From: an uncultured bacterium
GTDB taxonomy: Bacteria; Fidelibacterota; UBA2242
Length of the DNA stretch: 59,749 nucleotides
Reading direction: 5' to 3'
Assembly (NCBI GenBank): GCA_964485475.1
Contig: CAZAKB010000002.1
Coordinates: forward strand, 1-59,749
Shown here: piece by piece, positions 16,529-53,495 of the stretch
Layout: every line of letters begins with the position of its first letter
Numbering within the stretch: position 1 is the first letter of the stretch
Notes under the pieces: generated by a model
Told to the model about the DNA's origin: nothing
What the model saw: only the letters and a program-made list of their open reading frames with translations
Databases searched by the model: none
Position numbers and translations under genes: made by a program

Positions 16529-17770
16529 TTATGGATTCACAGCCTTAAACAGGGCAACAATGTTTTCCGGGCGAATATCCGCCATTATATTATGCACCTG
16601 CTGAAACACAAAACCGCTACCCTGCTTCATAATCTCGACCTGCTTTCGTACATGTGTTGCAACCTCATCAGGAGATTGATGAGGCAGAATATCGCGTGTA
16701 TCACAGCCACCACCCCAGAAACAAATACGGTCACCGAATTTATCCTTCAGATGCTGCGGATTCATGCCATTGCAGGATATCTGGACCGGATTCACCGCTT
16801 CCAGACCCACATCAATCAAATCATCCAGCAGCGGTTCGATCCCGCCACAGGAGTGTAGCATTATTTTCACGTCAGCAAGTTCTTTCGTTCGTTTCCATAA
16901 TTTCTGTTGATAGGGTTTATAATACTGACGAAACATGGCGTTTGACATGAATGGACCAGCCTGTGTTCCAAAATCATCTCCAAAAAGGATTACATCAATA
17001 TAGGGACCAACTGCGGTGAGCCATTTTTCCAGATTTCGCAAATGTAATTCAAAAAGTTTCTCCGAGAGTCGAACAACCGCCTCCGAATATAGTCCCATAT
17101 ACATAAAATAATTATCCATCCGAAACAGATACTGGGGAATCTCAAACATATTTCCGCCAAACAGACCAATGATCGCCCGATCGGTTGATTCCCTCAATTT
17201 TTTAGCACCAGCTGTCAGTTTTTGAAGTCCCTGTTCGTCTAATTTCAAATGACTTCCGGGAGCTGCAACACCTGTCCACATGGAATAGGCAAATTGTTCG
17301 GCCAGATCATCGAAATTATCGGTTTGAAAGTCTCTTCCCTCCATGGGAAAATGAATGTGTTCCATAAATGGCGAACCTTTTTTCTGGACCGCCAAATCCC
17401 GACCATCATTTGCCAGCAAATACCAATCTCCAAAACGCTCCTCAATATTGATATATTCCGGAATCTTACAAGGAGTGCCATCGGGCAGTACCCATTCCTT
17501 CCAATCCTCATCATCCAGTAAAAATCCCCGCCCCATTTCAATTGTATCGACACCGAAAAGATCAAGAATTTCAGGTTCAATAATCGCCAGTTGCTGGGGA
17601 ATATCGTAAACGTAAATATCCCCTGAAGAAATACCTAAATATCGCTTCAGACGAGCATATGACATCGCCATAATTCCCGATGAGCGATGTCCTCCAAAAT
17701 CAATCGGTATTCGGTCAACCGGTTCATGATTTATTGCAGCAATTATTCTTTCATGTGAATTCATAAGCAC
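16529..17770 (-). CDS. URO-D/MtaA-like (beta/alpha)8 protein, paralog A (H-S-C-G motif)
   Basis: 413 aa. N-terminal ERIIAAINHEPVDRIPIDFG and IMLHSCGGIEPLLDDLIDVGLEAVNPVQ are typical of the uroporphyrinogen decarboxylase / methylcobamide methyltransferase superfamily. Confidence 0.8.
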   Translation of the reverse strand: MLMNSHERIIAAINHEPVDRIPIDFGGHRSSGIMAMSYARLKRYLGISSGDIYVYDIPQQLAIIEPEILDLFGVDTIEMGRGFLLDDEDWKEWVLPDGTPCKIPEYINIEERFGDWYLLANDGRDLAVQKKGSPFMEHIHFPMEGRDFQTDNFDDLAEQFAYSMWTGVAAPGSHLKLDEQGLQKLTAGAKKLRESTDRAIIGLFGGNMFEIPQYLFRMDNYFMYMGLYSEAVVRLSEKLFELHLRNLEKWLTAVGPYIDVILFGDDFGTQAGPFMSNAMFRQYYKPYQQKLWKRTKELADVKIMLHSCGGIEPLLDDLIDVGLEAVNPVQISCNGMNPQHLKDKFGDRICFWGGGCDTRDILPHQSPDEVATHVRKQVEIMKQGSGFVFQQVHNIMADIRPENIVALFKAVNP

Positions 17771-17773
17771 TCT

Positions 17774-18814
17774 TCAATTTTCAACTATTTCGAATATGAG
17801 ATGATAATTCCGGGACTCGCCCGCTTCCAGATATTGCAGCGTTCCCCATTTCCGTTCAGCCACGCGTCCTTCCACATGACAGTTTGACGGTTCAATCCCC
17901 AAAACATGGATTCCTTCCCCGGGCATTTTCCACTGTACTAATCGTGGTAAGGTTCTTGTGTCCCAGGAAAGCCTGACCGTGATCGATTTTTCCAATTTTC
18001 CGATCGGAAATTCCGGTTGGTGAATGGTTGCAACCGCCCAATTATTTTCAGATATCAAATCTTCATGATAATAGACCTTTTCCGAAATATCTTTTTCCGG
18101 TTTTTGCCACAGATTATTGCCCTTAGTTTGAACGCCTTGATCTCTTGCTATTACTTTTTTTGAAGGCCAGTGAATCTGCGTTTTGTCTGTTAACAACGGA
18201 AACCCAAAATTGAAGTGGTACAGCAGCATGTGCGGCGTTTTTCTGAATCCCTCGTTCCGGACAACATCATCGATCTGGATTCGGTTTTCACCAAGTTTAC
18301 TTTGGATTGTGCGCGTCAGTGTAATGTTTTCTCCAAAAATCCGACTCTGCCGGATTTGGCCTTTGAGGATCATCAAATAATCATCCCCATGCCATTCACC
18401 TTCACATTGCATCATGGTCGCCGGCAGTTGATGAGCATCACCATGCAGCATCAATTTTTCATTGCCATCCAGACAGGGAGAACCAACCTGGCTCAAACCG
18501 CAGGTCATCAATAATCCCCCGACAGCCGTCTTGAGCCAATCTATTTCCCCGGCTTTCCAGAACGAAGGATGAATTTCTCCGTTACATGATTGCCAGCTTA
18601 ACGGTGTTCCGCAAAATTCAGCCAATGAAATATCCATTCCCCGTGTACTATTCACACAGTAGGATAATCCGGCACCGGTACGAACCTGAATTTGTTCGAC
18701 GTTTTTGACACTACTCCCTTGAAGAATATATCGTTTCATACCACCGATCTGATCGATCTGCCCGATATGCCGTTCAATTTCACGGCGTGTCCATGTTTTC
18801 CCGTAGAGTTTCAT
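17774..18814 (-). CDS. Aldose 1-epimerase-like (galactose mutarotase fold, DUF4432-type) protein
   Basis: 346 aa. The N-terminal WTRREIERHIGQIDQIGGMKRY and the overall beta-rich pattern resemble DUF4432 proteins. Called from memory. Confidence 0.55.
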   Translation of the reverse strand: MKLYGKTWTRREIERHIGQIDQIGGMKRYILQGSSVKNVEQIQVRTGAGLSYCVNSTRGMDISLAEFCGTPLSWQSCNGEIHPSFWKAGEIDWLKTAVGGLLMTCGLSQVGSPCLDGNEKLMLHGDAHQLPATMMQCEGEWHGDDYLMILKGQIRQSRIFGENITLTRTIQSKLGENRIQIDDVVRNEGFRKTPHMLLYHFNFGFPLLTDKTQIHWPSKKVIARDQGVQTKGNNLWQKPEKDISEKVYYHEDLISENNWAVATIHQPEFPIGKLEKSITVRLSWDTRTLPRLVQWKMPGEGIHVLGIEPSNCHVEGRVAERKWGTLQYLEAGESRNYHLIFEIVEN

Positions 18815-18818
18815 TTTG

Positions 18819-19352
18819 TTATCCTACCCGTTTGATATTCGGATCGGTGAAGATATCACTTTCATCATGGCTGGCGCTGGAAAATTCCGATACTATCGCT
18901 CCATCGGGACCGCCTTGAAACCAGTGCAATGTATCACTGGGTATCGTGAACTGATCACCGGGATTCAGTTCGATTTCATGAAAAACAGTATAGTAATTTT
19001 CGCTGCCTCCGGGAATGGTTGCCTGAATTGATTGGGTTGGTTCACCCGATATATAAAGAAATGCTTTACCCCAGCGGCATCGAAAAGTTTCCATTTTTCC
19101 CTGAATAACCTCTCTGTCCGGATGCCGATGTTCCGGACAGGTCTGATTGGGAAACAAAACCAGTTCTTTTGCGCAATACCGCGCATTATTTTCATACACA
19201 ATGATTTCCAGTCCCAGGGATTTCAGGTTGTTCAGCCCAAAATCCGCAATTTCCATGTTCGCGAATTCGTTTTTAGCTATCGCTATCCCGGCTTTCCGTA
19301 ACATTGCCGCGGCTCTGTTTTTGGCCATTTCGATACTACTATAATCCAACAT
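18819..19352 (-). CDS. D-lyxose/D-mannose ketol-isomerase (cupin, YdaE-like)
   Basis: 177 aa. RYCAKELVLFPNQTCPEHRHP, ETFRCRWGKAFLY, TLHWFQGGPDGAIVSEFSSASHDESDIFTDP match the Lyx_isomer family. Confidence 0.85.
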   Translation of the reverse strand: MLDYSSIEMAKNRAAAMLRKAGIAIAKNEFANMEIADFGLNNLKSLGLEIIVYENNARYCAKELVLFPNQTCPEHRHPDREVIQGKMETFRCRWGKAFLYISGEPTQSIQATIPGGSENYYTVFHEIELNPGDQFTIPSDTLHWFQGGPDGAIVSEFSSASHDESDIFTDPNIKRVG

Positions 19353-19377
19353 AACGTCTTCGTCCCTTCAGAGAATC

Positions 19378-20532
19378 TTATTTATCATTCAAATCAGCCG
19401 GTCCGTAAAGCAGATAATCCTTTTCAAACCATTGTTTTTCGTCAAATATATCCGATACCGGACGTTTTTCCCACCCGGTCTTTATTTTATTTTGGAGAGC
19501 ACTCCAGTCTGGGATTCCAGAGCTGGCATCTATCGTCTCCACACTGCAGGCACCAACAGCAATGGCCGTGTTGATTGTATTTTCAGGATTATTTCCTTTG
19601 ATAAGTGATGCCAGAAATCCGGCAATGGTGGCGTCTCCGGAGCCGGTCGCACCTTTGACATCGACCTTATAACAAGGCGAATAGATTTCCCGGTTGGTCC
19701 ATTGGTGCACATCCGGCACTATTTTTCCTAGTCGCTGCAGGTCACCGGACGTTCTCAGATAAAATCCCTGATCACCGAGTTTCAGGCCAACGATACAAGC
19801 CCCAAGATCAATCAACTCTCCCGAGATTCCTGATAATGTCTCGCCGGACAATTCTTTGCTGGTACCATATCCCAACATGAATCGAATTTCATCCAGGCTG
19901 GGCAGAAAGATATCCACAAACGGTAATACCCGTTCCAAAATTCTTCGCCAATCTACTTTTCCGGCATGGGAATTCGGGTCGGGATAGGCCATGTCCAGGG
20001 AGCTGATAATCCCGGCAGATTTGACTTTTTGGAATAGAGATATAAGTTCTTCTCCGGTATTTTCAAACATCTGTCGCATCAATGGTGGATAACCAAAATG
20101 AAACAGGCTTATTCCACGGAGATCATTATCCGAAATATCACAGGATGAGTACGTATTATTACATCCGGGATGATGCCAGAAACTGCGATCCCTTCCCGGT
20201 GGATTTACCACGATAGTATAAGAACTGGATTCGCCCGGGACCGGTTTCATGTTTTTGGTCAATGCAATATCTATTTCATTGAATCGGTTAAGGATAGCCT
20301 GACCAAATAGATCGTCGCCGACTTTTCCCAGCAATCGGGTTTTCATACCAATTTTATGAAGTGCAATTCCGACATTTGACACCGCTCCGCCAGTGGATAA
20401 ACAGGCTGATCCGATTTCCAGTAATTTTCCCGGTTCAATTAAATTGACGCTCGGGTTCGTTCCGATCTCCGGAATAATATCCAGGCAAACATGTCCGGCA
20501 ACTGCGATAATGATATCTTTTTCTAAACTCAT
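19378..20532 (-). CDS. PfkB-family carbohydrate kinase
   Basis: 384 aa with an N-terminal GG motif region (LSTGGAVSNVG) and the C-terminal GATGSGDATIAGF signature. Confidence 0.85.
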   Translation of the reverse strand: MSLEKDIIIAVAGHVCLDIIPEIGTNPSVNLIEPGKLLEIGSACLSTGGAVSNVGIALHKIGMKTRLLGKVGDDLFGQAILNRFNEIDIALTKNMKPVPGESSSYTIVVNPPGRDRSFWHHPGCNNTYSSCDISDNDLRGISLFHFGYPPLMRQMFENTGEELISLFQKVKSAGIISSLDMAYPDPNSHAGKVDWRRILERVLPFVDIFLPSLDEIRFMLGYGTSKELSGETLSGISGELIDLGACIVGLKLGDQGFYLRTSGDLQRLGKIVPDVHQWTNREIYSPCYKVDVKGATGSGDATIAGFLASLIKGNNPENTINTAIAVGACSVETIDASSGIPDWSALQNKIKTGWEKRPVSDIFDEKQWFEKDYLLYGPADLNDK

Positions 20533-21549
20533 CTACACTCTAATTGGGTACTGACCAAAATCTTCAACGGCTTTCAGCATAGCTTTATAATTTTCAACCG
20601 GCACATATTTGGCCACGGAATTACTGGAACCAATGGCAAATCCTCCTCCAGGTGCAATTTCCACGATTCGCTTTTTAACATATTCCCGGATTTCGCCCGT
20701 TGTTCCACGGGCCAACGGATAATCCATATCAACAGTGCCCAGTAATGCCAATTTTCCTTTCACTTGCTTTTTTAATTCCACAACATCCCAGGCTTTAGGT
20801 TCAATCGGGTGAATCGCATCAAATCCCATGGCGATATAATCATCCAGCAAAGGCGCCTGGTTTCCATCTGAGTGAAAGAAAAACATTTTTCCATGTTCAT
20901 GGGCCAAGGCTGCATATTTCTCGTACCATGGAAACAAATATTTACGAATAACATCCGGTGACATGATCAATGCCTCGGTATATGCAATATCGTCAGAAAG
21001 CCAAATCCCACCGATATGTTCCTCTCTAATAACCTTGTCATACATCGCTAGTAAACTTGCTCCAAGACTGTCACAAATGTTGCGGATATATTCCGGGTCC
21101 TCAAATAATCCCAACATGAATTTCTCATATCCAACGTTAATCCAGGCATGTTCATAAATTCCACCCTGTGGTGCAAATATTACCTTCATTCCCTCCGGTA
21201 AAATTTCACCGGCTTTATCAATATCACCGTAATCTATGCTGTTCGTAAACTTCTCCGTTTCAGCCTGAAAATCCGCCTTGGGATCTTTTAACCAGCCCTG
21301 GAAAAACTCGTACCTCGGTGACAGTCGCAGATAATCATAGCCGGCAGCCTGCCAGAAGTAAATGTCTTTTTGAACATCGAATCCTTTTTTTCGACAATCG
21401 TATTCGGTTATATTATCCTCCATAAACGTGGCCTTAATTTCCGGATCAATCCAGAGTTCCACAAGCGGCAGGCGATCCGGCTCTGCATGTCTGACTGCCT
21501 TTATCATCCGGTTAAAACCAGGATTTCTTTGCATTGATTTATCTTTCAA
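20533..21549 (-). CDS. URO-D/MtaA-like protein, paralog B (H-S-D-G variant)
   Basis: 338 aa with RMIKAVRHAEPDRLPLVE at the N-terminus and FFFHSDGNQAPLLDDYIAMGFDAIHPIE. It abuts the kinase gene with no gap. Confidence 0.8.
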   Translation of the reverse strand: MKDKSMQRNPGFNRMIKAVRHAEPDRLPLVELWIDPEIKATFMEDNITEYDCRKKGFDVQKDIYFWQAAGYDYLRLSPRYEFFQGWLKDPKADFQAETEKFTNSIDYGDIDKAGEILPEGMKVIFAPQGGIYEHAWINVGYEKFMLGLFEDPEYIRNICDSLGASLLAMYDKVIREEHIGGIWLSDDIAYTEALIMSPDVIRKYLFPWYEKYAALAHEHGKMFFFHSDGNQAPLLDDYIAMGFDAIHPIEPKAWDVVELKKQVKGKLALLGTVDMDYPLARGTTGEIREYVKKRIVEIAPGGGFAIGSSNSVAKYVPVENYKAMLKAVEDFGQYPIRV

Positions 21550-23390
21550 TCATTAGGGTCATTCAGTGGTTTCGTAATCCCCACATCGGGCCTGATAAAG
21601 ACCAGCAATAGTTTGCAACTTCGTTTACCTTTATTCCTCACATGGAAATTTTTCGCCGCCGCCGGAACAATCATTGATTCTGCCCACGCCAGCGGATATT
21701 CACGGCCATTGGCGGTTTGAATAATGACAGTTTCACCTTCCACCAAATTCAGAGCAAAAGCAGTGTCGTTGGTTTCCATTTGGAAAACATCATCGAATTC
21801 AACTCGCTCAACCGTCCACCAGTTTTCCTTCTGGTCAGCGAGTAAATATTTTTTCCAGTGGTCATTTGCTTCGATTAAAATTGGTTTGGCAATTAGGTTT
21901 TCCTTAACCCATTTACCACGACGCTCAAAGCGAATATTCTGCCAGGCACGTTCAATGTTCAGCGGGCGGAATTTGCCCTCCAGATCACGTCGCATCCAAT
22001 CATAAATTTTAAACGTAAATATATATGTCGTCGCGCTGATCTCTAGCACCAAATTATCCTTACCGCTGCCATGAATTGTACCGTTGGGAATCAAAAACAT
22101 GTCATGCGGTTTGGACAGTTCACTGTTGACAAATCGGTCAATATCCACTTCCCTGCCGAATTCAGCGGATTTCGTAACGGCCTTATAAAATTCATCTGGG
22201 TCACAATCATCGGTAAGGCCGATATAAACCCTTGCACCGGGTTTGGCATTAAGGATATAATAGGATTCATCCTGTGTAAATGTTTCTCCAAATTCTCGCC
22301 GGACAAAATTCGGCCGTGGATGAACCTGCGTCGATAGATTGCCACCATCGATTGTATCAAGGTAATCCAATCGAATCGGCCACTCATACCGAAATTGCCG
22401 GGCGGCTTGTTTCCCGAGTACTTTTTCTTTCTCATGATACATCAGGAAGTCGAAAGAGAACTCAAGCCGTTTACCATCACTCTCGAGGATAATCCCGTTT
22501 TCAGGGGTAATAATTTCAAAAGACGTGGAAAGGTTGACTTTATCCTGATGAATTCCGAAATGACCCTGCATAAAATGGCCACCCCAGGGACCCGAATAAT
22601 ACCACGGTCGCACCCGAAATGCAGAACAGGCCAAATCCTTCAGATTCTCACGGAACTCACCACCTGAAATAAACATCGGATTCTCAGGTAATTGAAGGTC
22701 GATTAGCAGGTCAATATTATTCACAATCTGTTTTTTATGCCGGTTCAGAGCCGGCCATTCCACAAAATAGGCTCTTTTATAAAATGGTTCAAAGCCTTGA
22801 TAGTCACTTGCGCCAATATTGCGAGTCCGTCCCGCTTTGGCATTATTCTGAATGACATCTTTCGGGATATCGATATACCATAAACAATCCCAGACCTCTA
22901 TCAATCCGACACCTAATCCATAGAAAATTGTCAGTTTACCGGATTCGTCACCCCGTAATATAGATGCCTGGATACGCCGATCGGCAATCTTTCCGGCATT
23001 AAAAAACACCTCAATCCCGAAGGGGAACTGTCTGCCAAAAATTCGATCATCACCACCCAAAAATGGTTCAATCCGATTGAATATCATCGTTTCATCGGCC
23101 TGGCATTCAGCCATATTAACCCATGTCGGACTTATACCTTCTTTTTTCAGTGTTTGAGACAACTCACCTCGAAATTTTGTCCAGTCTATTCCGTGATATC
23201 CATCTATCGCCAATACCCGTAAACCGCTATTGATCCGCTGGATTATTCTTTCAGCCAAAGCCAGATAGCCGCCTTCTATTTTTCCATTTTTAACAGTAAA
23301 TGCTGGAAATGGGTCATACAATCCCCGTGGATACTCGGTCAGGTCAGACGGAATCGGCGCAGCCAAAGCATTATTTAAATCTTTAGTCAT
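21546..23390 (-). CDS. Class I mannose-6-phosphate isomerase-like protein with a roughly 270-aa N-terminal extension
   Basis: 614 aa. The cupin/PMI blocks LSTQVHP, DESYYIL and LIPNGTIHGSG lie in the C-terminal half. The N-terminal half is unassigned. Confidence 0.7.
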   Translation of the reverse strand: MTKDLNNALAAPIPSDLTEYPRGLYDPFPAFTVKNGKIEGGYLALAERIIQRINSGLRVLAIDGYHGIDWTKFRGELSQTLKKEGISPTWVNMAECQADETMIFNRIEPFLGGDDRIFGRQFPFGIEVFFNAGKIADRRIQASILRGDESGKLTIFYGLGVGLIEVWDCLWYIDIPKDVIQNNAKAGRTRNIGASDYQGFEPFYKRAYFVEWPALNRHKKQIVNNIDLLIDLQLPENPMFISGGEFRENLKDLACSAFRVRPWYYSGPWGGHFMQGHFGIHQDKVNLSTSFEIITPENGIILESDGKRLEFSFDFLMYHEKEKVLGKQAARQFRYEWPIRLDYLDTIDGGNLSTQVHPRPNFVRREFGETFTQDESYYILNAKPGARVYIGLTDDCDPDEFYKAVTKSAEFGREVDIDRFVNSELSKPHDMFLIPNGTIHGSGKDNLVLEISATTYIFTFKIYDWMRRDLEGKFRPLNIERAWQNIRFERRGKWVKENLIAKPILIEANDHWKKYLLADQKENWWTVERVEFDDVFQMETNDTAFALNLVEGETVIIQTANGREYPLAWAESMIVPAAAKNFHVRNKGKRSCKLLLVFIRPDVGITKPLNDPND

Positions 23391-24322
23391 AATTGAATTT
23401 CTTTATTATTAGGATGATTATGCATTGGATGGAACGCGATACCCAGTGCCGCAGCGCGGTTTCCGAGTACATCTGATCGGATTTTAACATTCCCCCGCGG
23501 GAACGTCCATGCCATTTTTTGTACTGCCTTAATCAGTTCTGGCAGAATCAGGTCTGCTGAATTCATGACGCCACCACCAATAACAACCACCTGGGGACCG
23601 TAGGCATGGATTATATTAACAATACCCAGCGCCAGATTGCTCTGAAACATTGCCAGCGTCTGACTGTATTTCATATTTCCATTGCGGACTTCATCGAAAA
23701 ACCTGGGCAGTATTTCATCAGTACCGAACAATTCGGGATGGGCGTCTATTATACACTGCATGAAAGCCGTCGCGGAGCAATAGGATTCAAGACAACCACG
23801 ACTGCCACAGGCACAGACCGGGCCATTTCTGTCAATACTGATATGGCCGCCAAGCAAACCGCCAGCGGGATCAGCGCCCATATAGGGTTTGCCATCAACT
23901 ATCAAAGCCGAACCAATGCCGGTCCCCAACGTCAGACATACAAAAGGATTACTGCCACGCCCCGCACCAAACAACCATTCACCCCAGGCATACGCCCGGG
24001 CATCATTGTCGACGGCAAAGGGAAAACCAAGTTTCTCTTTAAAGACACTGCAAAGATCAAGGCCAGGGAAAAATTGTGCTTCACCAATGTCACGATGCCA
24101 GATTCCGGTTTGGGGATCAACCAACCCCTTGACAGCCAATCCGCCTTTTTCTACGGGATATTTTCCGATGAAATTCCGGGCAGCCTCGACGAGGTTTTCC
24201 AGTAAACGATCACCGCGATTCAGATCAGCAAGTTTCACCTGCTGAAATGCAATTTCATGACCATCTTCCTCGAAGATACCAAATTTGACATGAGTTCCGC
24301 CAAAATCAATTCCGAGCCGCAT
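23387..24322 (-). CDS. ROK-family sugar kinase
   Basis: 311 aa with MRLGIDFGGTHVKFG (ATP-binding) and the CACGSRGCLE zinc motif. Confidence 0.85.
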   Translation of the reverse strand: MRLGIDFGGTHVKFGIFEEDGHEIAFQQVKLADLNRGDRLLENLVEAARNFIGKYPVEKGGLAVKGLVDPQTGIWHRDIGEAQFFPGLDLCSVFKEKLGFPFAVDNDARAYAWGEWLFGAGRGSNPFVCLTLGTGIGSALIVDGKPYMGADPAGGLLGGHISIDRNGPVCACGSRGCLESYCSATAFMQCIIDAHPELFGTDEILPRFFDEVRNGNMKYSQTLAMFQSNLALGIVNIIHAYGPQVVVIGGGVMNSADLILPELIKAVQKMAWTFPRGNVKIRSDVLGNRAAALGIAFHPMHNHPNNKEIQL

Positions 24323-24333
24323 TCCTGAATCCT

Positions 24334-25590
24334 TTAATCAGTAAAATAATATTCTAGGGCATCAATTAAATGACGCCGCCAACTACCCCAGGTATGGCCT
24401 TCGTGATATTCTTTGTAAACCAAATTGTTGTTTTTTCCTTCTAGAACCTTTTTCAAACGACGAGCGGCTTCCAAAAAATTGGTCTCTTCTTTTGGCAGAA
24501 AATTTCCACCAACCACTCTCTCATAAGTCCCGACATCTACCCAGAATCGAACGTTCCTTTTTTCTGAAGCATTAATCTCCCGTATCAGCTGATCATTAAA
24601 ACAAGAGTAATATCCGGATTGTCCATAGGCATTACCGAATACGTCTGATCGTTTAAACCCGATAGCAACGGAGATTAGCCCACCATAAGAATCCCCGGCA
24701 ACTAACCGCTGATCAGGCAATTGAATAGTCGCATAAGATTTATCTATAAATGGTACCAGTTCATCACAGAAAAACCGCACATAATCATCATTTAATCCGT
24801 ACTCTGTAGTCCGGTTTGGCATTTCCGGTTTGAAGCGGTTGGGCGGTTGGACAAAAACTGCGATCATCGGCTTGATCTTACCGGCATTGATCAGACCGTC
24901 CAAAACTGTTGGAATATGGGCAAATTCGATATAATCCTGACCGTCCTGCAGATACAGCGCCGGATAGGCCTGATCAGTGGAATATTCTGGCGGCAGATAG
25001 ACAAAAACATCGTGAGAATAGCCCAGAATTTCCGATTCATGGACATGTTTTATTACCTGTTTTAAATCGCTCTTCTTTCCGAAGATAAATGGTTTAAACA
25101 ATGGATGTCGTTCGTACTTCGGCATCGCCAATTCGGAAAATGGCCCGAAACCGTTGAGTACTTTATATGGATTCAGCGGATCAGGAAAAGGAAAACCGTC
25201 TTTAGTAATGGAAATGCCGTATTCCAGACGGGCATCGGGTTCTAAGACTAAACGTTTATAGTACAAATCAGTGGCCGGAATATTCTCCATTGCAATAAAA
25301 TCCGCCCAACACGTCATATCACCATTAAGAACAATACCCTGATCGTTCCCCTGATAAAGCAGCACAACCGTGGAATCGTTTTCAAAAATCGGGTAATCCC
25401 CTATTCGGCAATCCCGGATTAATTCATTGGCGGCAATTTGTTTATCCAGCGGATTTTCCATGAATTTGATCTTATTCTGAAACTCAATAAATAAACGATT
25501 ATTGGACACATTATCTGTCGAACAATTCATCAATCCACTCCCAAATATAACCATTAGCATCATGTAACTAATAAATTTACTATTTTTCAT
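24334..25590 (-). CDS. Exported esterase (PF00756-type alpha/beta hydrolase with N-terminal Ig-like module)
   Basis: 418 aa. The leader ends in LMNCS, and the nucleophile elbow is GDSYGG. Overall layout is like enterochelin/feruloyl-type putative esterases. Confidence 0.7.
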   Translation of the reverse strand: MKNSKFISYMMLMVIFGSGLMNCSTDNVSNNRLFIEFQNKIKFMENPLDKQIAANELIRDCRIGDYPIFENDSTVVLLYQGNDQGIVLNGDMTCWADFIAMENIPATDLYYKRLVLEPDARLEYGISITKDGFPFPDPLNPYKVLNGFGPFSELAMPKYERHPLFKPFIFGKKSDLKQVIKHVHESEILGYSHDVFVYLPPEYSTDQAYPALYLQDGQDYIEFAHIPTVLDGLINAGKIKPMIAVFVQPPNRFKPEMPNRTTEYGLNDDYVRFFCDELVPFIDKSYATIQLPDQRLVAGDSYGGLISVAIGFKRSDVFGNAYGQSGYYSCFNDQLIREINASEKRNVRFWVDVGTYERVVGGNFLPKEETNFLEAARRLKKVLEGKNNNLVYKEYHEGHTWGSWRRHLIDALEYYFTD

Positions 25591-27664
25591 TACCTATCTC
25601 CCTCATTCCGGATTTATTGACAGCATAGCGTTTTCCCTGAAAGCGCAAATTTAATAGTTCTGCATTGGCATCGAATTCCTGAAAATCCGGTTTTGCACTT
25701 ATTGTTTTCAACGTTGAATTCACACCGAATATCGATTCGATAATAACATTCACAAATGCTCCGCCACCGGAGACAGCCCAATCGCACATAAACGGCGGCT
25801 CCGGCGGACATTTAATCGCCCCGCCGTTTTCGGCAGGAACCGCAGATTCCACGAAATGCGCCTGGCCGAACGGCCCCTGGTTAGCGCTTTTCGCAACACC
25901 TTTCAACCAGCGGAATGCCTCTTTTCCGCGCCCGATTTTGTACAATGCCGTTGCCGCCTGAGCGGGCCAAGCCGGATACGCGCCATTCCATTGATGGTCA
26001 GGCCGGACACTGAACATAGCATTATCATCAAACGGCGAAATAGCCCTGAGCCAATTATTTGTTTTCAGTTCGTCATTAAAAAACCGATACATCTCGCTTT
26101 TTTGAACATCACTTAGATCATCGCTAATAGTATTCAGAATTGTGATAAAGTCATAGATATGCCGGACCTCGACCATTTTTCCATCGGGAAAACGGGCATG
26201 CCAGTATCCGCCACCCGGCTTATATAATTTTTGCAGATCAGGTAGCAGTGCCTCGGCGGTACGACGGTGATCAGCGGCATTTTTTGAATTTCCCGTCATT
26301 TCCAGAATATCCGCCATAAACCGCAGATTATGAACATTGCCGGCATTAAGACTGGCGACTTCATGAATATAGGTACTGACGCATTCCAATAAATTATTTA
26401 TTCCGCCGTAATCGGCCAAACCATTTTTGCTCTTAAAATAATTCCAGCTATCTGCATACTTACGAAAGTAGTCGATCACCTTCATTGATAACGATGGATC
26501 TTTTGGATTTCTGATACACTTATTCAGCCAATCATATCGGCCATTCCAACTTAAAAAATACCGCGACATTGAGAGCATCGCAAAATCATTCACCGAATAC
26601 CAGGGTCCCACTGGTCCATCCGTCAAATACTCGGTACCAAAATGATGGTGCGTGTCCATCAGCATCCAGCGTTCTAAATATTTCTGCATAACATCGGGAT
26701 CCAGAAGCGCATGCACCATTTGACTAAGATGATAATCCCAGATAAATGTCACCGTTTGCCAGTATTTTGGCACGAGTGTATCGTACGCCCGACCGTATTT
26801 TGAATATGGATTATCCCGCTTGAAATATATAACACTGAGAATAGCCATATAATATAATCTTAAAATGTCCTGATCATTGGTTAACAATGTCGGTAAATAA
26901 CCAGAATAGCGACTATTACCCGGTGTAAATACGGCTTGTAATTCAGAATTCCAATCCCGCTCAGTTTTCAGAATTTCATTGACCGGATGAGCTGCAACCT
27001 CATCGTAAATCTGACATATTTCTTTCTCTTCGCTGCCAATCACGGAGATAAAATAAACGGTCTGATTGTCACCGGCTTCGAGGTGAAGCATTTTTTCAAG
27101 TGCAATTGGAGAAACACGATCAGCCTTTTTACTTAAACCCTGAATTTGAATCGCTTTGCTGTTTCGGGCACTGAAAAGTACGGCTGAGCGGTTCTCATAA
27201 ACAGTCACTTTATTATCAGATTCATGAGGAGGCATAAAATTCGCCCATTTGTCAAGGGCAAACGTAACTGAACCCGCAATACCAAACTTCAATTTTACAT
27301 CATGAACAGTTCCCGACCGATTTTCTACAGATAGATGAACAATCACTCCATTTTTCCCAGTTAGCATAACTGTCTCGGATTTCAAAAACAGTCCTTGATA
27401 TTCGGCTTCCCGGATAATTTTATCCGGCTGCCAGTAATATGTCACCGGACAATTCAGAGACGGAAAGTAACGCCCATTCAGAAAAAGGCCGGCTGTCACC
27501 GTATCGGCTGTACCAAACGGTGGAAAATTGAGGCTGGAAATCCCCGTAATATCCCTGCTAACCTGCATAGCACCGACAAAATTCGTCAATCCTGGCGGAT
27601 TAAAAAGATCACTAAAACTATGGATCATCGGACTGCTGACCAGATCTTTGACAGTGGGAATCAT
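25580..27664 (-). CDS. Unassigned 694-aa cytoplasmic protein; possible beta-sandwich plus (alpha/alpha)6 glycoside hydrolase/phosphorylase-like fold
   Basis: Long uninterrupted ORF with an 11-nt overlap to the downstream gene. I recognise no family motif. The Trp/aromatic-rich helical C-terminal two-thirds (FIWDYHLSQMVHALLD, HQWNGAYPAWPAQAATALYKIG) suggests a six-hairpin fold. The function is a guess. Confidence 0.35.
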   Translation of the reverse strand: MIPTVKDLVSSPMIHSFSDLFNPPGLTNFVGAMQVSRDITGISSLNFPPFGTADTVTAGLFLNGRYFPSLNCPVTYYWQPDKIIREAEYQGLFLKSETVMLTGKNGVIVHLSVENRSGTVHDVKLKFGIAGSVTFALDKWANFMPPHESDNKVTVYENRSAVLFSARNSKAIQIQGLSKKADRVSPIALEKMLHLEAGDNQTVYFISVIGSEEKEICQIYDEVAAHPVNEILKTERDWNSELQAVFTPGNSRYSGYLPTLLTNDQDILRLYYMAILSVIYFKRDNPYSKYGRAYDTLVPKYWQTVTFIWDYHLSQMVHALLDPDVMQKYLERWMLMDTHHHFGTEYLTDGPVGPWYSVNDFAMLSMSRYFLSWNGRYDWLNKCIRNPKDPSLSMKVIDYFRKYADSWNYFKSKNGLADYGGINNLLECVSTYIHEVASLNAGNVHNLRFMADILEMTGNSKNAADHRRTAEALLPDLQKLYKPGGGYWHARFPDGKMVEVRHIYDFITILNTISDDLSDVQKSEMYRFFNDELKTNNWLRAISPFDDNAMFSVRPDHQWNGAYPAWPAQAATALYKIGRGKEAFRWLKGVAKSANQGPFGQAHFVESAVPAENGGAIKCPPEPPFMCDWAVSGGGAFVNVIIESIFGVNSTLKTISAKPDFQEFDANAELLNLRFQGKRYAVNKSGMREIGNEK

Positions 27665-27680
27665 TGTGTAAATATTATCC

Positions 27681-30470: not shown

Positions 30471-30493
30471 TACAATATCCTAATTTTCAAAAT

Positions 30494-31468: not shown

Positions 31469-31479
31469 TTGGCTTTCAC

Positions 31480-32475: not shown

Positions 32476-32510
32476 TAATTACTTTCTATTTATATAAACC
32501 CGCATTCAGG

Positions 32511-33626: not shown

Positions 33627-33665
33627 TCCGCATTTCTTTTTGTATTATCTGACATATGTATTATA

Positions 33666-33687: not shown

Positions 33688-33712
33688 CATAATTGTCTCA
33701 CAAGGTGCAAAC

Positions 33713-34576: not shown

Positions 34577-34670
34577 TTCAGCCTCCTTTGTTTGTTTGCG
34601 GTTAGCATTCTTAATTCGTGATTTCCAAAATTGTCTAAATACATCCATTCTCTTCTATTAATTGCTTCTG

Positions 34671-39867: not shown

Positions 39868-39872
39868 CTATC

Positions 39873-41228: not shown

Positions 41229-41233
41229 AGACT

Positions 41234-43237: not shown

Positions 43238-43251
43238 TTATCAAGACCCGG

Positions 43252-44205: not shown

Positions 44206-44207
44206 CT

Positions 44208-46091: not shown

Positions 46092-46105
46092 CTTGATTAC
46101 TCTCC

Positions 46106-49354: not shown

Positions 49355-49396
49355 AAAATTACCCCTTTATCACCACACTAAACTCATTTTCAATAA

Positions 49397-50107
49397 CTAT
49401 TCTTCATCCGGGAAATAATTAATGATGATATCCCGGATGCGCTTTAACCGGGTTTCCATCAGTTCAATTGCTCTCTCCTTGTCCTTCTTTTTTAATGCCT
49501 CGTACAAATCGGAATGGGTCTGATAATCTTCCTGGCAGGCCATATGTTTATTGATCAGCTGAATCTGATCGTCAGTATATAAATTTGTAATGACTCGAAC
49601 AATCTCGTTAATTATAATATTTTTTGCGGCTTTCCGAATCATATAATGAAATTCCAGGTAATCCAGACCACATTCATTAAAGTTATCCAGATGGAGTTTC
49701 GCGTCGTCCAGCAGACCTTTCATCTTCAGGAACTCACACTGGGTCATATTGTTGATAGCCAGAGATACGATCATGCCCTCCATCGCAATTCTTGCGTCGA
49801 TCAGTTCCAGTAATATCTTTTTTGATAATGGTTGAGCGGTAGTAATCGGGTTCGGCAGAAACAGGGTATTGAAGTAACGTCCGACAAAAATCCCGGAACC
49901 GTGTTTAATCACAATCGAGCCGATGGTTTCAAGCTTCTTTATTGCTTCCCGCAGGGTTGGCAAACCGACTCCGAAAAATTTGGCGAGTTCTGCTGTTGAA
50001 GGCAGGCGATCACCCCGTTTTAAATCATTTCTGACAATAAATGCCCGAATCTCCTCGGCCAGATGATCTGAGAGAGAACGTTTGTTTATGGGAGTAATGT
50101 CATTCAT
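49397..50107 (-). CDS. GntR-family transcriptional regulator (FadR/FCD subfamily)
   Basis: 236 aa. The winged-HTH N-terminus (GDRLPSTAELAKFFGVGLPTLREAIKKLE) is followed by an all-helical FCD-like C-terminal domain. Confidence 0.9.
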   Translation of the reverse strand: MNDITPINKRSLSDHLAEEIRAFIVRNDLKRGDRLPSTAELAKFFGVGLPTLREAIKKLETIGSIVIKHGSGIFVGRYFNTLFLPNPITTAQPLSKKILLELIDARIAMEGMIVSLAINNMTQCEFLKMKGLLDDAKLHLDNFNECGLDYLEFHYMIRKAAKNIIINEIVRVITNLYTDDQIQLINKHMACQEDYQTHSDLYEALKKKDKERAIELMETRLKRIRDIIINYFPDEE

Positions 50108-50123
50108 AATTATTCCAATTCAT

Positions 50124-50142
50124 AAAGTCATTTGTTGATTTT
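50124..50142. promoter_or_regulatory. Second copy of the candidate operator (AAAGTCA-TTTGT-TGATTTT), upstream of the GntR gene and in the divergent spacer to the URO-D operon
   Basis: 6 of 7 arm positions are palindromic. The flanking 17-mer ATTCATAAAGTCATTTG is identical to 7783-7799. A further palindrome, ACTTTCAAAGT, lies at 50146-50156. Confidence 0.45.
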
Positions 50143-50412
50143 ATAACTTTCAAAGTATAAATTAATTTCCAACAAGTTTCAAGATAAAAATGTATTTTTA
50201 AAATCAGAATCAGCGCACCAAAATTTTAGCAAGGTGATTTCATTCGAAAATCCATTAACAGTCGCCAACGCATCAAAGCCATTATCAACCATCAAGCAAC
50301 CGATCGCAGCGGTTTCTGGCTTGGTAATCCGCATGCCGATACTTGGCCGATTTTTCACCGCTATTTCAAGACCGATTCTGAAGAAAATTTACGTGTAAAA
50401 ATTGGTGATGAT

Positions 50413-51261
50413 GTGCGCTGGATTTGCCCCCAGTTACAGCTTGGTTTTTACCGTGCCCCCGATGGAAAGGGTTTGTTTAATAATTACTCTGCAAAGGATG
50501 GAAAACACCCTCTCGCCGACTGTGAAACCATTGGAGAATTAGAGAACTTCAGCTGGCCCAATCCTGATTATCTTTACTTTAATGATACCATTGACATCCT
50601 TCGGAATACCGGTAACATTTACCGTTTAAGCGGGATGTGGACTTCCTTCTATCATGATCTTATGTTTTTATTTGGAATGGATAACTATCTCATTAAAATG
50701 TACACTCATCCCGAAGTAGTCGAGAGAGCCACTCAATATGTTTGTGAATTCTATTTTGAAGCCAACCGGATCTTTTTTGAACAGGCCGGAGATTTAGTTG
50801 ACGGTTATTTCTTCGGGAACGATTTCGGAACCCAGCAGGATTTGATAATGAGTCCGGATCTTTTCGATAAATTTATCATGCCCTGGTTTCGTCGTTTTAC
50901 AGATCAGGGTCATTCATACGGATACCAGGTCATCCTGCATTCTTGCGGTGCCATTTACAAAGTTATTGAACGATTAATTGATGCGGGTGTGGATTGTCTG
51001 CATCCCCTTCAGGCAAAGGCATGCAATATGAATGCTGAAACCCTGGCCCGTGATTTCAAAAATAAAATCGCTTTTATGGGTGGTATTGATACCCAGGATT
51101 TGCTGGTTAACGCTTCTCCTGAAGAGATTAAAAAGGATGTTCGTCGAGTAAAATCTCTGCTGGGCCCAAACCTTATCATCAGCCCCAGCCACGAAGCCCT
51201 GTTACCTAACATTCCACCAGAGAATGTTCAGGCCATGATTGAGGCAGCATTTGAAAAATAA
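50413..51261 (+). CDS. URO-D/MtaA-like protein, paralog D (H-S-C-G); conserved N-terminal coding sequence continues upstream to 50230 without a canonical start
   Basis: The only canonical start is GTG 50413. The same frame stays open from 50230 and encodes SRQRIKAIINHQATDRSGFWLGNP, which is homologous to the N-termini of the other paralogs. VILHSCGAIYKVIERLIDAGVDCLHPLQ is present. Confidence 0.7.
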   Translation: MRWICPQLQLGFYRAPDGKGLFNNYSAKDGKHPLADCETIGELENFSWPNPDYLYFNDTIDILRNTGNIYRLSGMWTSFYHDLMFLFGMDNYLIKMYTHPEVVERATQYVCEFYFEANRIFFEQAGDLVDGYFFGNDFGTQQDLIMSPDLFDKFIMPWFRRFTDQGHSYGYQVILHSCGAIYKVIERLIDAGVDCLHPLQAKACNMNAETLARDFKNKIAFMGGIDTQDLLVNASPEEIKKDVRRVKSLLGPNLIISPSHEALLPNIPPENVQAMIEAAFEK

Positions 51262-51288
51262 TTTACAACCGGTTAATTGGAGAATTGG

Positions 51289-52389
51289 ATGACATCCCGA
51301 GAACGATTATTAACTGCCCTTTCCAATGAAAAACCCGACCACCTGCCCTGCCAGGTACACAGTTGGATGCCCTATTATCTGAAAACCTACTTGGACGGCC
51401 GGGATCAGTTTGGAGCTTATGAATTTTTCAAGGGAATGGATTGGGTCATCTACGCCAATCCCCGGTTCATCTATAATGATACGGACCACGGTGTCTGGAA
51501 AAAACGGGATATCGATCTGGGAACTGATAGCGATGGTTCGCATCAGTTCCGGCATATCATCACAACCCCGGAAGGGGAATTGAGCTACGGACTGGGCTGG
51601 AACCAGTTCACCGCCTGGGTCACCAAGCATCTGATCGAAACGGAACGGGATTTCGATCTCTGGCAAAAATATGTCCCACTCCCGGAAAAAGTCGACTGGA
51701 CGCCACTAATCGAAATAAAAAAACGCATTGGTGATAGGGGCATTGTGCGGGGGGAATTTTTCGGCTTTGGGCAGGGCAGCCCCTGGCAGGACTTTTGTTA
51801 TATGTTCGGCACAGAGCTGGCGATTTATGCCGCTTATGACCGGCCCAATTGGGTTCACCACGTCTTAAACACCCTCCTGGAGAAAAAAATCAGTGTGATT
51901 GAGCGCGCCGGAACTTTTGAAATGGATATGGTCGAAACCGGGGGTGGGGCTGGATCGTCAACGGTAATCAGTCCCTCTATGCACCGGGAATTCTGTCTGC
52001 CTTACGATCGGATCCAAATCAACGCGTTGCACAACGCCGGAACCCGGGTGGTGTATCACCTCTGCGGCGGACTAATGCCACTCCTGGAAACAATCGTCGA
52101 AAACGGCACTGACGGCCTCGAAACGATGACACCGCTTTCAATGGGAGGTGATTGCAACCTGGCGGAAGCCAATCAGCGGGTTGGGAATAAATTATTTTTT
52201 ATCGGCGGTTTTGATCAGAACGCCGGTTTTGAAAAAGGTGATGCCGAAACCACGGCAAAATTGGTTCGGGAATGTCATCAGGCCTGCCCCGACGGTGGCT
52301 ATATTTGCAGCCCCTCGGATCACTTTTTCAGTGGTGATCCGGCCAATGTGCAGGCATTCGTGGATGAAGCCAATCGTTGTCATTATTAA
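51289..52389 (+). CDS. URO-D/MtaA-like protein, paralog E (H-L-C-G)
   Basis: ATG 51289 is preceded by GGAG with 6-nt spacing (the ORF track begins at TTG 51277). It has SRERLLTALSNEKPDHLP and VVYHLCGGLMPLLETIVENGTDGLE. Confidence 0.8.
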   Translation: MTSRERLLTALSNEKPDHLPCQVHSWMPYYLKTYLDGRDQFGAYEFFKGMDWVIYANPRFIYNDTDHGVWKKRDIDLGTDSDGSHQFRHIITTPEGELSYGLGWNQFTAWVTKHLIETERDFDLWQKYVPLPEKVDWTPLIEIKKRIGDRGIVRGEFFGFGQGSPWQDFCYMFGTELAIYAAYDRPNWVHHVLNTLLEKKISVIERAGTFEMDMVETGGGAGSSTVISPSMHREFCLPYDRIQINALHNAGTRVVYHLCGGLMPLLETIVENGTDGLETMTPLSMGGDCNLAEANQRVGNKLFFIGGFDQNAGFEKGDAETTAKLVRECHQACPDGGYICSPSDHFFSGDPANVQAFVDEANRCHY

Positions 52390-52400
52390 CACCTAAAGCA

Positions 52401-53495
52401 ATGGACACCCACATGCTTGACACTATCCCGATCCATCACCCAAATCCCGATAATCAAGCCTTCATTGCGCACCTCATGGGCCAAAAGCCACTGACCGCTG
52501 CACCCCTGGTGGAATACAATATCGATGATTCGCATATCCAACGAATCACAACGGAGATATTCAATCGTCCCTGGATTCCCTGGAGCAGAACACGGAGTGA
52601 TCAGCAATCTTGTCTGGATAATTTTATCCAGATCTGGTACCGCCTGGGTTACGATTTCGTCCGCTTTGAGCGCAGTCTGAGATTTGATGAAAAACGTGTT
52701 ATTGGTAAGGAACGCAGTTGGGTGGATCAGCAAAAGGGTGCTATTCAAAACTGGCAGGATTTTGAACAATATCAATGGCCCAAAGTCAGTGAATTTGATT
52801 TCTCTTCCTATGAATACATTAACAATAATCTCCCTAATGGCATGGGCTTTATTGTGTCCCATGCCGGGGGTGTATTTGAACATCTGTCTCAGATTATGTC
52901 CTTTGAAGGGCTGTGCTACGCCCTGGTGGATCAGCGTGATCTGGTGGAAGCAATTGTTGAAAAACTCGGAACATTAACAACGGAATTCTATTCTCAAATC
53001 CTGGACCTTGACCATGTTATTGCCTTGTGGCCGGGTGATGATATGGGTTATCATAGCGGAACAATGATTTCCCCTGCTGATTTGGGGCAGCTTATTCTTC
53101 CCTGGCATAAAATTTTTGCCCGGATGGCTCACAAACGTGGATTGCCTTATTTCTTGCATTCCTGTGGCAATTTAACAGATATTATGGATACGTTGATAGC
53201 TGATGTAATGATCGACGGCAAACATTCCTTTGAGGACTCAATTATACCGGTGGAAGATTTTCACAAGCAGTATGGAAAAAGGATCGCGGTTCTGGGAGGT
53301 GTTGACGTCAACATCCTGGCGTCTGGTACACCGGAAGAGGTTCGAGCCCGCACCCGGGATCTGATTGAAAAATGCGATCTCATTGGAAGGTTCGGAATTG
53401 GCTCCGGCAATTCAATTCCGGATTACGTCCCTCTTAATAATTATTTGGCAATGATCGATGAAAGACATAAAGTAGCCCATGCAGGAAAACATTAA
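52401..53495 (+). CDS. URO-D/MtaA-like protein, paralog F (H-S-C-G)
   Basis: ATG 52401 (the track begins at TTG 52377, overlapping the previous stop). It has YFLHSCGNLTDIMDTLIADVMIDGKHSFE and RIAVLGGVDVN. Confidence 0.8.
   Translation: MDTHMLDTIPIHHPNPDNQAFIAHLMGQKPLTAAPLVEYNIDDSHIQRITTEIFNRPWIPWSRTRSDQQSCLDNFIQIWYRLGYDFVRFERSLRFDEKRVIGKERSWVDQQKGAIQNWQDFEQYQWPKVSEFDFSSYEYINNNLPNGMGFIVSHAGGVFEHLSQIMSFEGLCYALVDQRDLVEAIVEKLGTLTTEFYSQILDLDHVIALWPGDDMGYHSGTMISPADLGQLILPWHKIFARMAHKRGLPYFLHSCGNLTDIMDTLIADVMIDGKHSFEDSIIPVEDFHKQYGKRIAVLGGVDVNILASGTPEEVRARTRDLIEKCDLIGRFGIGSGNSIPDYVPLNNYLAMIDERHKVAHAGKH

Follow-up and report, generated by a model that had tools for sequence, protein, structure and literature searches.

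Six uroporphyrinogen decarboxylase-superfamily paralogs of a glycan-utilisation locus as candidate corrinoid-dependent sugar demethylases

The 59,749-bp stretch of contig CAZAKB010000002.1 considered here (the window) comes from an uncultured, Marinimicrobia-like bacterium and forms a single large glycan-utilisation region of 38-47% G+C, with most genes on the minus strand. Within it lie six genes for proteins of the uroporphyrinogen decarboxylase (URO-D) superfamily, numbered P1 to P6 in window order. A preliminary description, made from the letters of the window alone, had placed these genes outside any haem context and interleaved with GH38 mannosidases, kinases, isomerases and an ABC importer, a setting that Pfam annotation confirms. 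On the strength of sequence and gene context, we lean toward reading P1-P6 as UroD/MtaA-superfamily methyltransferases that depend on corrinoid (B12) and remove the methyl group from O-methyl sugars, their partner proteins being encoded elsewhere in this genome. Their most likely role would be that of the substrate-specific (MTI-type) component in a demethylase that works without oxygen on methylated sugars, or on small glycosides, derived from a decorated alpha-mannan-type glycan. Methylated sugars are proposed as the methyl donors because the locus is a catabolic glycan locus, and the demethylase reading gains support because loci holding orthologs of these proteins encode a corrinoid protein, an activator, a pterin-binding methyltransferase and MTHFR together with sugar genes.

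Six conserved families and a candidate metal site

All six open reading frames (ORFs) pass the Pfam URO-D model PF01208 (50.9-92.8 bits against a gathering threshold of 23.9; E 1e-13 to 3e-26); each exists where it had been placed, and three of the starts shift. P1, of URO-D/MtaA fold (411 residues; Pfam E 3e-19), occupies 16529..17764 of the minus strand, its start now corrected to 17764. Two further proteins of URO-D fold are encoded on the same strand: P2 (338 residues; 20533..21549; Pfam) and P3 (about 316 residues; 30494..31444; Pfam E 2.7e-26), the latter lying between a HAD hydrolase and a GH38 gene and probably starting at 31444 within an ORF that extends to 31468. The remaining three, also of URO-D fold, follow one another on the plus strand: P4 (335 residues; 50254..51261; a full-length tblastn match), P5 (366 residues; 51289..52389; Pfam E 1.7e-19) and P6 (364 residues; 52401..53495; Pfam E 5.8e-17), with orthologs of P5 and P6 in L175, where L codes denote comparison loci from other genomes and metagenomes. 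At 50254 the P4 gene has ATT where every ortholog has ATG (MNSRQR...), and because of this replacement gene callers begin at the GTG at 50413, which removes 53 conserved residues and yields a 282-residue product. An AGGTGA sits a few bases upstream of the ATT (50242-50415 region), and P4 may be ATT-initiated or weakly expressed. The possibility that P4 is a truncated pseudogene was ruled out, since its 335-residue frame is intact, its orthologs align end to end and its dN/dS is 0.11.

Pairwise identity among P1-P6 is at most 31%, with P6 closest to P2 (29%), and the six proteins therefore represent six old subfamilies. Recent local gene amplification is ruled out by this low identity and by the existence of a separate conserved family for every paralog; the earlier suggestion that six-fold paralogy reflects diversification within the locus was accordingly misleading, the subfamilies being ancient and separately conserved. 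All six are under purifying selection, with dN/dS of 0.06-0.14 (P4 as above), or saturated dS, against orthologs that are 79-86% identical. Homologs of P1 number more than 7000 and are 60-65% identical across phyla (Planctomycetota, Verrucomicrobiota, Bacteroidota, Chloroflexota, Aminicenantes, KSB1, Hydrogenedentota and others), the genomes nearest by P1 being those of Candidatus Neomarinimicrobiota at 76% identity. The 2964 homologs of P4 show 62-66% identity across phyla, and the P2 and P3 families are smaller than these two (143 cluster representatives at E<1e-30 for P3). Some members of the P2 family (P0224, P0227, P0229, P0232, P0236; L173, 10001-11533) are fusions of about 510 residues that carry an N-terminal PF25653 (HMG-CoA_red_N) domain, sometimes together with PF19906, and several P2 relatives are named 'nucleoside 2-deoxyribosyltransferase' at NCBI, an apparent mis-annotation.

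The Pfam family name, and a HemE as the best PDB sequence match of P5 (E 1e-5), would speak for uroporphyrinogen decarboxylases or other haem-pathway paralogs, a reading that the tests run refute and to which we attach next to no credence. The highest score on the HemE equivalog model TIGR01464 is 25.8 bits (P3) against a cut-off of 302.95, and P2, P5 and P6 have no match to it at E<0.01; none of the 38 annotated genes in the 59.7 kb belongs to tetrapyrrole or haem biosynthesis; Pfam URO-D matches span only the C-terminal half to two-thirds of the model; and the genes are present as six copies in a glycan locus. The check for membership of the HemE clade that accompanied the preliminary description thus finds the paralogs far from that clade and leaves the original idea standing. 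P1-P6 score higher on MtaA/CmuA models than on hemE. Their scores on MtaA/MtbA NCBIfam models, 18-68 bits, lie below all cut-offs (NF040654, 400; NF041608, 600; TIGR01463, 235.4; NF004889, 244), and the HemE and MtaA-type models together give 16-68 bits for the six paralogs. Judged by these profiles, no member of P1-P6 is HemE or a true MtaA/MtbA ortholog.

A short motif divides the paralogs exactly as previously described, into four proteins with H-(S/L)-C-G and two with H-(S/T)-D-G: P1, P4 and P6 have HSCG, P5 has HLCG, P2 has HSDG and P3 has HTDG. Its H and C are at least 97% conserved in 121 P1 relatives and 116 P4 relatives, H-S-D-G is at least 90% conserved in 111 P2 relatives, and H-x-D-G is at least 90% conserved in 38 P3 relatives; both forms are family traits rather than drift. 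Residues conserved in each family comprise H304, C306, N325, Q328, C354, D355, H391 and N392 for P1; H229, C231, H250, Q253, H313 and E314 for P4; H226, S227, D228, G229, H247, E250 and N310 for P2; and H216, D218 and G219 for P3.

The H-x-C/D pair aligns onto the H-I-C-G of MtaA. Zinc is bound in MtaA and MetE by His, Cys and Cys (H-x-C-xn-C), and in P1 to P6 the position of the third MtaA ligand (Cys in 'PGCG') is taken by H, N, N, H, D and N, respectively (H391 in P1). The pair had been presented as the His-x-Cys half of a zinc site, implying a site of the MtaA type; now that the third ligand has been mapped, as was then proposed, this implication falls away, the MtaA Cys being kept in no paralog. 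A putative metal site composed of His, Cys or Asp, and His or Asp is plausible, and P1-P6 are predicted to bind a metal. By analogy with zinc in methanol- and thiol-methyltransferases, a metal in the His-x-Cys/Asp site would polarise the methyl-bearing oxygen or sulfur.

Structural comparison agrees with the profile search, in which the closest solved structure is MtaA (PDB 4ay7, E 4.9e-15). The AlphaFold2 (AF2) model of P1 (pLDDT 90.8) finds MtaA 4ay7 as its top PDB fold match with a TM-score (TM) of 0.66, and the P2 model (pLDDT 94.6) likewise finds MtaA, with TM 0.69-0.71; UroD comes after MtaA, and MetE follows. The P1 model contains an extra five-stranded beta insertion at residues 88-127.

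Corrinoid proteins and sugar genes beside orthologs

In the closest relatives (P1 79-84% identical), the syntenic loci carry a DxHxxG corrinoid protein. The gene order in L090 and L091 (P1 84% identical) runs from a GH63-like gene through an esterase, ROK, a 614-residue protein, P2, PfkB, a cupin and DUF4432 to P1, and continues with a divergent gene for a flavoredoxin/FMN-binding-like protein (FlavRed), GH38, GH13, SASA and then a three-gene corrinoid operon. This operon encodes a 464-residue MtaA-like URO-D fused to a thioredoxin-like CPPC domain, followed by CobW and a 209-residue corrinoid protein with DLHDIGKN (L090, 17492-20453). The MtaA-like URO-D of these two loci scores 158-160 bits on MtaA/CmuA models (137-160 bits across the MtaA/MtbA NCBIfam models for L090). 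By synteny, the position that the operon takes in L090, L091 and L092 corresponds in the window to a 223-bp intergenic gap without assigned strand (10128..10350), upstream of the SASA esterase and GH13 genes, where the operon is absent and tblastn was negative. As a separate observation, the URO-D-thioredoxin fusion of these three loci hints at a protein or small thiol as methyl acceptor. A corrinoid gene also stands directly upstream of the GH63-like gene in L087 (P1 79% identical), and L092 holds CobW, the corrinoid protein, SASA, GH13, FlavRed and P1 within 3.6 kb.

Corrinoid proteins adjoin P1 orthologs in L007, L030, L062, L092 and L119. In L062 (Verrucomicrobiota), where no other methyltransferase is found among the annotated neighbouring ORFs, the corrinoid gene (Pfam E 2.6e-30) runs 4 nt into the beginning of the P1 ortholog, and we take this overlap to mean that the two genes are translationally coupled. 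A fuller set occurs in L030 (Bacteroidales), which encodes MTHFR, a pterin-binding methyltransferase, formate-tetrahydrofolate ligase (FTHFS) and AraC on one strand and, on the other, a corrinoid protein, RACo (Fer2, Raco_middle and RACo_C_ter), a sugar-porter MFS protein (TIGR00879, 351 bits against a cut-off of 238), a DUF5060 glycosidase and the P1 ortholog. The P1 gene of L021 directly follows RACo, another URO-D, GH44, GH29 and GH32 genes. Last, L172, from a complete Anaerolineae genome, has a FlavRed ortholog (46%; 1375-2256), a URO-D, MTHFR and a pterin-binding methyltransferase, and continues with a sugar-binding protein, two permeases 47-53% identical to those of the window, a P2-like URO-D (36%) and GH38; the URO-D genes near its MTHFR and pterin-binding methyltransferase are P2/P3-like.

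A reciprocal search, in which metagenome contigs were queried with an alignment of the relatives' corrinoid proteins, returned 80 loci. Beside the corrinoid protein stand relatives of P1 (53%, L119) and of P3 (45%, L130, 1.2 kb away); a relative of P4 (37%) in L119, whose start overlaps the stop of the corrinoid gene; and a relative of P5 (40%) directly upstream of the corrinoid protein in L148. RACo lies near the corrinoid gene in 13-14 of these loci, and the neighbours include sugar porters (L105, L149), SSF symporters and DUF4432 with ROK (L150), as well as ABC sugar permeases that are 47% identical to those of the window and adjoin the corrinoid gene (L101, L111). Transporters of the sugar-porter type recur in corrinoid methyltransferase clusters: one such cluster (L149, 1858-6656) comprises a P1-like URO-D, a corrinoid protein, MtaB and a sugar-porter MFS protein, and another (L105, 8697-16367) a P1-like URO-D, a corrinoid protein, a sugar porter, a homocysteine S-methyltransferase domain, DUF1638, an MtaA-like URO-D and RACo.

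The link to sugar genes was surveyed around P1 in 80 genome loci, counting genes as directly adjacent when within 400 nt and otherwise when within the fetched flanks; informative neighbours emerged only after the flanking ORFs had been clustered. A sugar transporter or glycosidase homolog is adjacent to P1 in 31 of the 80 loci and within the flanks in 44. SSF symporters account for 19 adjacent and 23 flanking cases, sugar-porter MFS proteins for 7 and 12, large GH38 enzymes of the window's 1180-residue type for 9 and 15, and GH32 for 5 and 5. The 15 loci with this GH38 type within 10 kb of a P1 ortholog, adjacent in 9, belong to other phyla. A GH38-P1-SSF cassette recurs in Planctomycetota and Hydrogenedentota (L016, L026, L056, L063, L072, L073, L079, L080, L082, L086), its GH38 bearing an N-terminal module like PL4 domain III, and a variant cassette, SSF-P1-GH32, is found in Phycisphaerae (L005/L006). 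The immediate neighbours of P1 in the window (DUF4432, cupin, PfkB and FlavRed) are not conserved around P1 orthologs outside Marinimicrobia. For P4, an ortholog in L177 (Bacteroidota; 700-15400) lies among GH95, GH141, a GH29-GDSL fusion and esterases, a set that we take to be reminiscent of the degradation of pectic rhamnogalacturonan-II or fucosides, where 2-O-methyl sugars occur. Co-occurrence with glycoside hydrolases beyond this contig, which had been set as a check on the original idea, is thus observed: contigs other than this one, including those of further phyla, also combine these families with glycosidases and sugar transporters.

These neighbourhoods bear on a different use of the same fold, in which P1-P6 would be cofactor-independent and possibly metal-dependent sugar enzymes on a UroD barrel (decarboxylases, isomerases or epimerases, or hydrolases), their corrinoid neighbours being coincidental or serving a separate step. 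UroD itself works without a cofactor; the compact GH38-P1-SSF and SSF-P1-GH32 cassettes look self-sufficient; the His/Asp/His/Glu pattern of P2 is like that of metal-dependent sugar isomerase sites; and, after UroD, the next fold matches are uronate isomerase and sugar epimerases. Corrinoid genes are missing from the whole window and from about 94% of P1 loci. Against this stand the coupling of a corrinoid gene with P1 in L062 and with a P4-like gene in L119, the full methyl-transfer kit around P1 in L030, and the corrinoid protein inside the same locus in the closest relatives; moreover, our literature searches found no function of the superfamily other than methyltransferase and HemE, and we know of none. 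We thus judge a cofactor-independent reaction, which the preliminary description had offered as one of two explanations, to be unlikely, and less likely than it was then; the lack of a corrinoid gene within 10 kb at some 94% of P1 loci keeps it in view.

A further alternative keeps the corrinoid and changes the substrate: the H-x-C members would act like MtaA, MtsA or Mlp, with a thiol or thioether (for instance a methylthio-sugar or a small methyl-sulfur compound) as methyl donor or recipient, or taking an acceptor-side role, and would merely be co-regulated with glycan catabolism. In the alignment, His-x-Cys is the thiol-binding zinc half-site of MtaA and MetE; L149 sets a P1-like protein in an MtaB-corrinoid cluster and L105 joins one to a corrinoid protein and a homocysteine S-methyltransferase domain; relatives encode an MtaA-like URO-D fused to a thioredoxin-like domain, plus CobW; and bacterial MtaA homologs have been proposed to function in methyl-sulfur or methyl-selenium metabolism (PMC10418091). 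We nevertheless give this alternative a low probability, since the third Cys ligand is absent from all six proteins, Asp replaces Cys in P2 and P3, and the genes that share operons with P1 orthologs are those of sugar porters, SSF, GH38 and GH32, not sulfur genes. In addition, P1 is the sole UroD-type enzyme beside the corrinoid protein in L030 and L062, and L030 has a separate pterin-binding enzyme for the acceptor side.

Several observations weigh against the sugar demethylase reading itself. The window yielded no corrinoid protein, activator or methyl acceptor, as had been noted before: tblastn with corrinoid proteins, RACo, CobW, MtaB, MTHFR, the pterin-binding methyltransferase and the homocysteine methyltransferase gave a best E of 0.013. 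Genes for characterised MTI proteins usually adjoin their corrinoid gene, which is within 10 kb in only 5 of 82 P1 loci (about 94% without), and L088, L089 and L176 hold solitary orthologs. Because the third-Cys position holds other residues, the classical H-x-C-xn-C zinc site of MtaA is, by alignment, retained in none of the six. The very high conservation of P1 and of P4 between phyla (60-65%) points to a single, unchanging small substrate and not to a range that diversifies. In L149, MtaB and a corrinoid protein are accompanied by a distantly P1-like protein (29%), and because this protein sits with MtaB the H-x-C types could be acceptor-side enzymes like MtaA. Finally, the demethylase reading rests on gene context, and the substrate sugar of this locus is a prediction. 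The window also contains no cobalamin riboswitch. The proposal of the preliminary description, O-methyl-sugar methyltransferases with a partner encoded elsewhere, is thus strengthened in its corrinoid part by the syntenic relatives, the coupling in L062 and the kit of L030, whereas a sugar as the substrate, and O-methyl rather than S-methyl, are inferred. An MTI rather than MTII role for P1-P6, and a corrinoid protein on another contig of this genome, are likewise our expectation.

The glycan-utilisation locus and a proposed pathway

Pfam annotation of the window identifies four GH38 alpha-mannosidases (977-3754, 12805-15555, 27681-30470 and 34671-38213), four DUF4185 (GH183-type) genes, two of them with sorting tails of the type IX secretion system (T9SS), and genes for GH63-like and GH106-like proteins, SASA and other esterases, GH13, an AKR-ferredoxin protein and a HAD hydrolase. 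Uptake genes comprise a TonB receptor and an ABC sugar importer whose MalK-type ATPase is encoded apart, and sugar metabolism is represented by ROK and PfkB kinases, a lyxose/mannose-isomerase-type cupin, DUF4432 and an MPI-like cupin protein. Between P1 and P2, a mannose-to-fructose-6-phosphate module on the minus strand (17774..20532) contains DUF4432 (mutarotase-like), the lyxose/mannose-isomerase cupin and the PfkB kinase, and is syntenic in L087, L090 and L174. It is followed on the same strand by a block (21546..30470) encoding the 614-residue MPI-like cupin protein, ROK kinase, an esterase, a GH63-like (alpha/alpha)6 hydrolase and GH38; this block is syntenic in L174, and its own match to NCBIfam manA is weak. 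Also on the minus strand, at 34671..41228, are the large GH38 (1180 residues) and the ABC sugar importer, with two permeases and a binding protein.

The plus-strand operon P4-P5-P6 ends with a MalK/MsiK-type ABC ATPase (53511..54614; Pfam ABC_tran, OB_MalK, TOBE_2), which is the likely energiser of the importer at 38099-41228, and a GntR/FCD regulator (49397..50107, minus strand; Pfam) diverges from it. The operon with its opposing GntR gene is kept in identical arrangement in L175, and the operon P3...P2...P1 is kept in L174. FlavRed (289 residues; 15612..16481, plus strand) adjoins P1, matches Pfam Flavin_Reduct weakly and PDB 1eje at E 3.8e-11, and is conserved beside URO-D genes in Marinimicrobia (L087, L090); it may be a candidate electron donor that keeps the corrinoid reduced, and possibly a reductant other than RACo.

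Other features of the region were also noted. The sole RNA gene detected is a tRNA-Arg (TCT) at 715-788. Uptake at 41234-49354 appears as a hybrid, with a TonB-dependent receptor carrying CarboxypepD_reg and an inner-membrane ABC importer rather than a SusCD/MFS arrangement, and the same region encodes two unannotated outer-membrane or lipoprotein-like genes and T9SS-tailed DUF4961/DUF4185 enzymes. Two long ORFs probably start farther downstream than drawn: that of the GH38 gene at 34671-38213 overlaps a permease by 115 nt (38099-38213), and that of the GH106-like gene overlaps the opposite-strand AKR-ferredoxin gene by 95 nt (7868-7962). Two DeoC-type class I aldolase genes, which the window lacks, lie between DUF4432 and P1 in L090 (8374-9990) and L174 (13806-15418).

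Taken together with the demethylase reading, these genes suggest a pathway in which secreted DUF4185 and GH38 enzymes and esterases would cleave the polymer, the fragments would enter through the TonB receptor and the ABC importer, and cytoplasmic GH38 and GH63-like enzymes would free the monosaccharides. A URO-D paralog would then take up the methylated sugar, a metal on its His-x-Cys/Asp plus His/Asp/Asn polarising the methyl-bearing heteroatom, and the Co(I) of a separate, shared corrinoid protein would strip off the methyl group. Freed mannose would reach fructose-6-phosphate through the isomerase and PfkB, or through ROK and MPI. By way of another methyltransferase, the methyl group would pass to tetrahydrofolate, for which L030 and L172 encode the pterin-binding methyltransferase and MTHFR; an alternative acceptor would be a thiol, through an MtaA-like-Trx fusion with CobW as in L090.

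One candidate clue to the polymer was discarded. An equation of MmpH with DUF4185, which would have pointed to 3-O-methylmannan, is wrong, as DUF4185 is the GH183 endo-D-arabinofuranase (PMC10115798) and MmpH, the mycobacterial methylmannose-polysaccharide hydrolase, is an (alpha/alpha)6 barrel (PMC9883506); the link was dropped and is not used here.

Relation to known methyl-transfer systems

Sugar methyl ethers, such as those of 3-O-methylmannose, 6-O-methylgalactose, 2-O-methylfucose, 2-O-methylxylose and 4-O-methylglucuronate, block entry into glycolysis. The sole enzymatic route for their demethylation that we found in the literature is an O2-dependent cytochrome P450 (PMC6292453). At stake is the handling of methylated glycans by strict anaerobes that live in sediments, in guts or in anoxic water columns. 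If the demethylase reading is true, it would assign a function to thousands of genes for 'uroporphyrinogen decarboxylase family protein' in polysaccharide loci of Planctomycetota, Bacteroidota, Verrucomicrobiota, Chloroflexota and Marinimicrobia, tie B12 dependence to glycan degradation, and open a new path from polysaccharide methyl groups to C1 pools. More tentatively, the P1-P6 families might constitute a widespread system for O2-free removal of carbohydrate methyl groups onto a B12 protein, in glycan-utilisation loci of at least ten bacterial phyla. Such a system would do without oxygen what the P450 sugar demethylases do with it, and would feed methyl groups into the C1 metabolism of fermenters that are neither acetogens nor methanogens. 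His-x-Cys and His-x-Asp would then mark two mechanistic classes, for example soft and hard Lewis-acid activation of S-methyl and O-methyl groups, or different sugar positions, and FlavRed could be a new kind of corrinoid reductant.

Cleavage of methyl ethers by MTI proteins of the UroD superfamily is established, some of them being zinc enzymes, for OdmB, VdmB, MtvB and MtoB, and CdmB is a halomethane enzyme of this kind (PMC13222342). These proteins share Pfam family and (beta/alpha)8 fold with P1-P6, and their genomes encode many paralogs, each with its own substrate. Systems of the OdmB/CdmB type employ a DxHxxG corrinoid protein of about 210 residues, a RACo-type activator and a pterin-binding MTII that passes the methyl group to tetrahydrofolate; this partner set stands in full beside the ortholog in L030 and in part in L090, L087, L062 and L172, whereas partner genes of the P1-P6 families are usually non-adjacent. 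Similarity of CdmB to P1-P6 is marginal (E 1e-3 to 1e-4), and CdmB lacks the H-x-C/H-x-D motif. Systems of this type are known to act on aryl methyl ethers or halomethanes and come from acetogens, Desulfitobacterium and a single methanogen, whereas the P1-P6 families lie among glycoside hydrolase and sugar transporter genes in Marinimicrobia, Planctomycetota, Bacteroidota, Verrucomicrobiota and Chloroflexota. Compared with aryl ethers and halomethanes, the alkyl methyl ether of a sugar presents a much poorer leaving group.

MtaA/MtbA/MtsA (4ay7) give the best profile match (E 4.9e-15) and the best fold match (TM 0.66-0.71) to P1-P6, the H-x-C-G motif aligning to H-I-C-G, and MtaA has an N-terminal ...R-L-L-A-A-L...P-D-R-V-P motif in common with them. 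The differences are an identity of only 16-19%, the replaced third Cys, Asp for Cys in two paralogs, the extra beta insertion of P1 (residues 88-127) and the lack of coenzyme M metabolism in these bacteria. HemE shares the superfamily fold (TM 0.6-0.7); its model is not matched by P1-P6 at cut-off, nor is its N-terminal substrate-binding half.

A further comparison is with the type 1 mlp clusters described by Kountz and Balskus, found mostly in Firmicutes, which unite Mlp2 and Mlp3, a corrinoid protein and RACE and for which methyl-sulfur or methyl-selenium substrates have been proposed (PMC10418091). Like the window, they hold several UroD-superfamily MtaA homologs per cluster in non-methanogenic anaerobes, have an unknown methyl acceptor and often lack a tetrahydrofolate methyltransferase. 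The window departs from them in having neither corrinoid protein nor RACE, and in its setting, a glycan-utilisation locus.

In proposed role, a parallel is the cytochrome P450 that demethylates 6-O-methyl-D-galactose in marine Bacteroidota (PMC6292453), which likewise removes, within a polysaccharide-utilisation locus, a methyl ether that blocks sugar catabolism. That protein is unrelated, requires O2 and releases formaldehyde, whereas the proposed UroD-fold system would need no O2 and would keep the methyl group on a carrier. Full-text literature searches found no paper that ties UroD-family proteins or corrinoid methyltransferases to polysaccharide loci or to sugar demethylation; the discussion of bacterial MtaA homologs has been confined to methyl-sulfur/selenium metabolism (PMC10418091). 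Thus, as read from sequence, the enzyme superfamily and its three-component logic are known, and what would be new is the substrate class, the genomic setting and the organisms.

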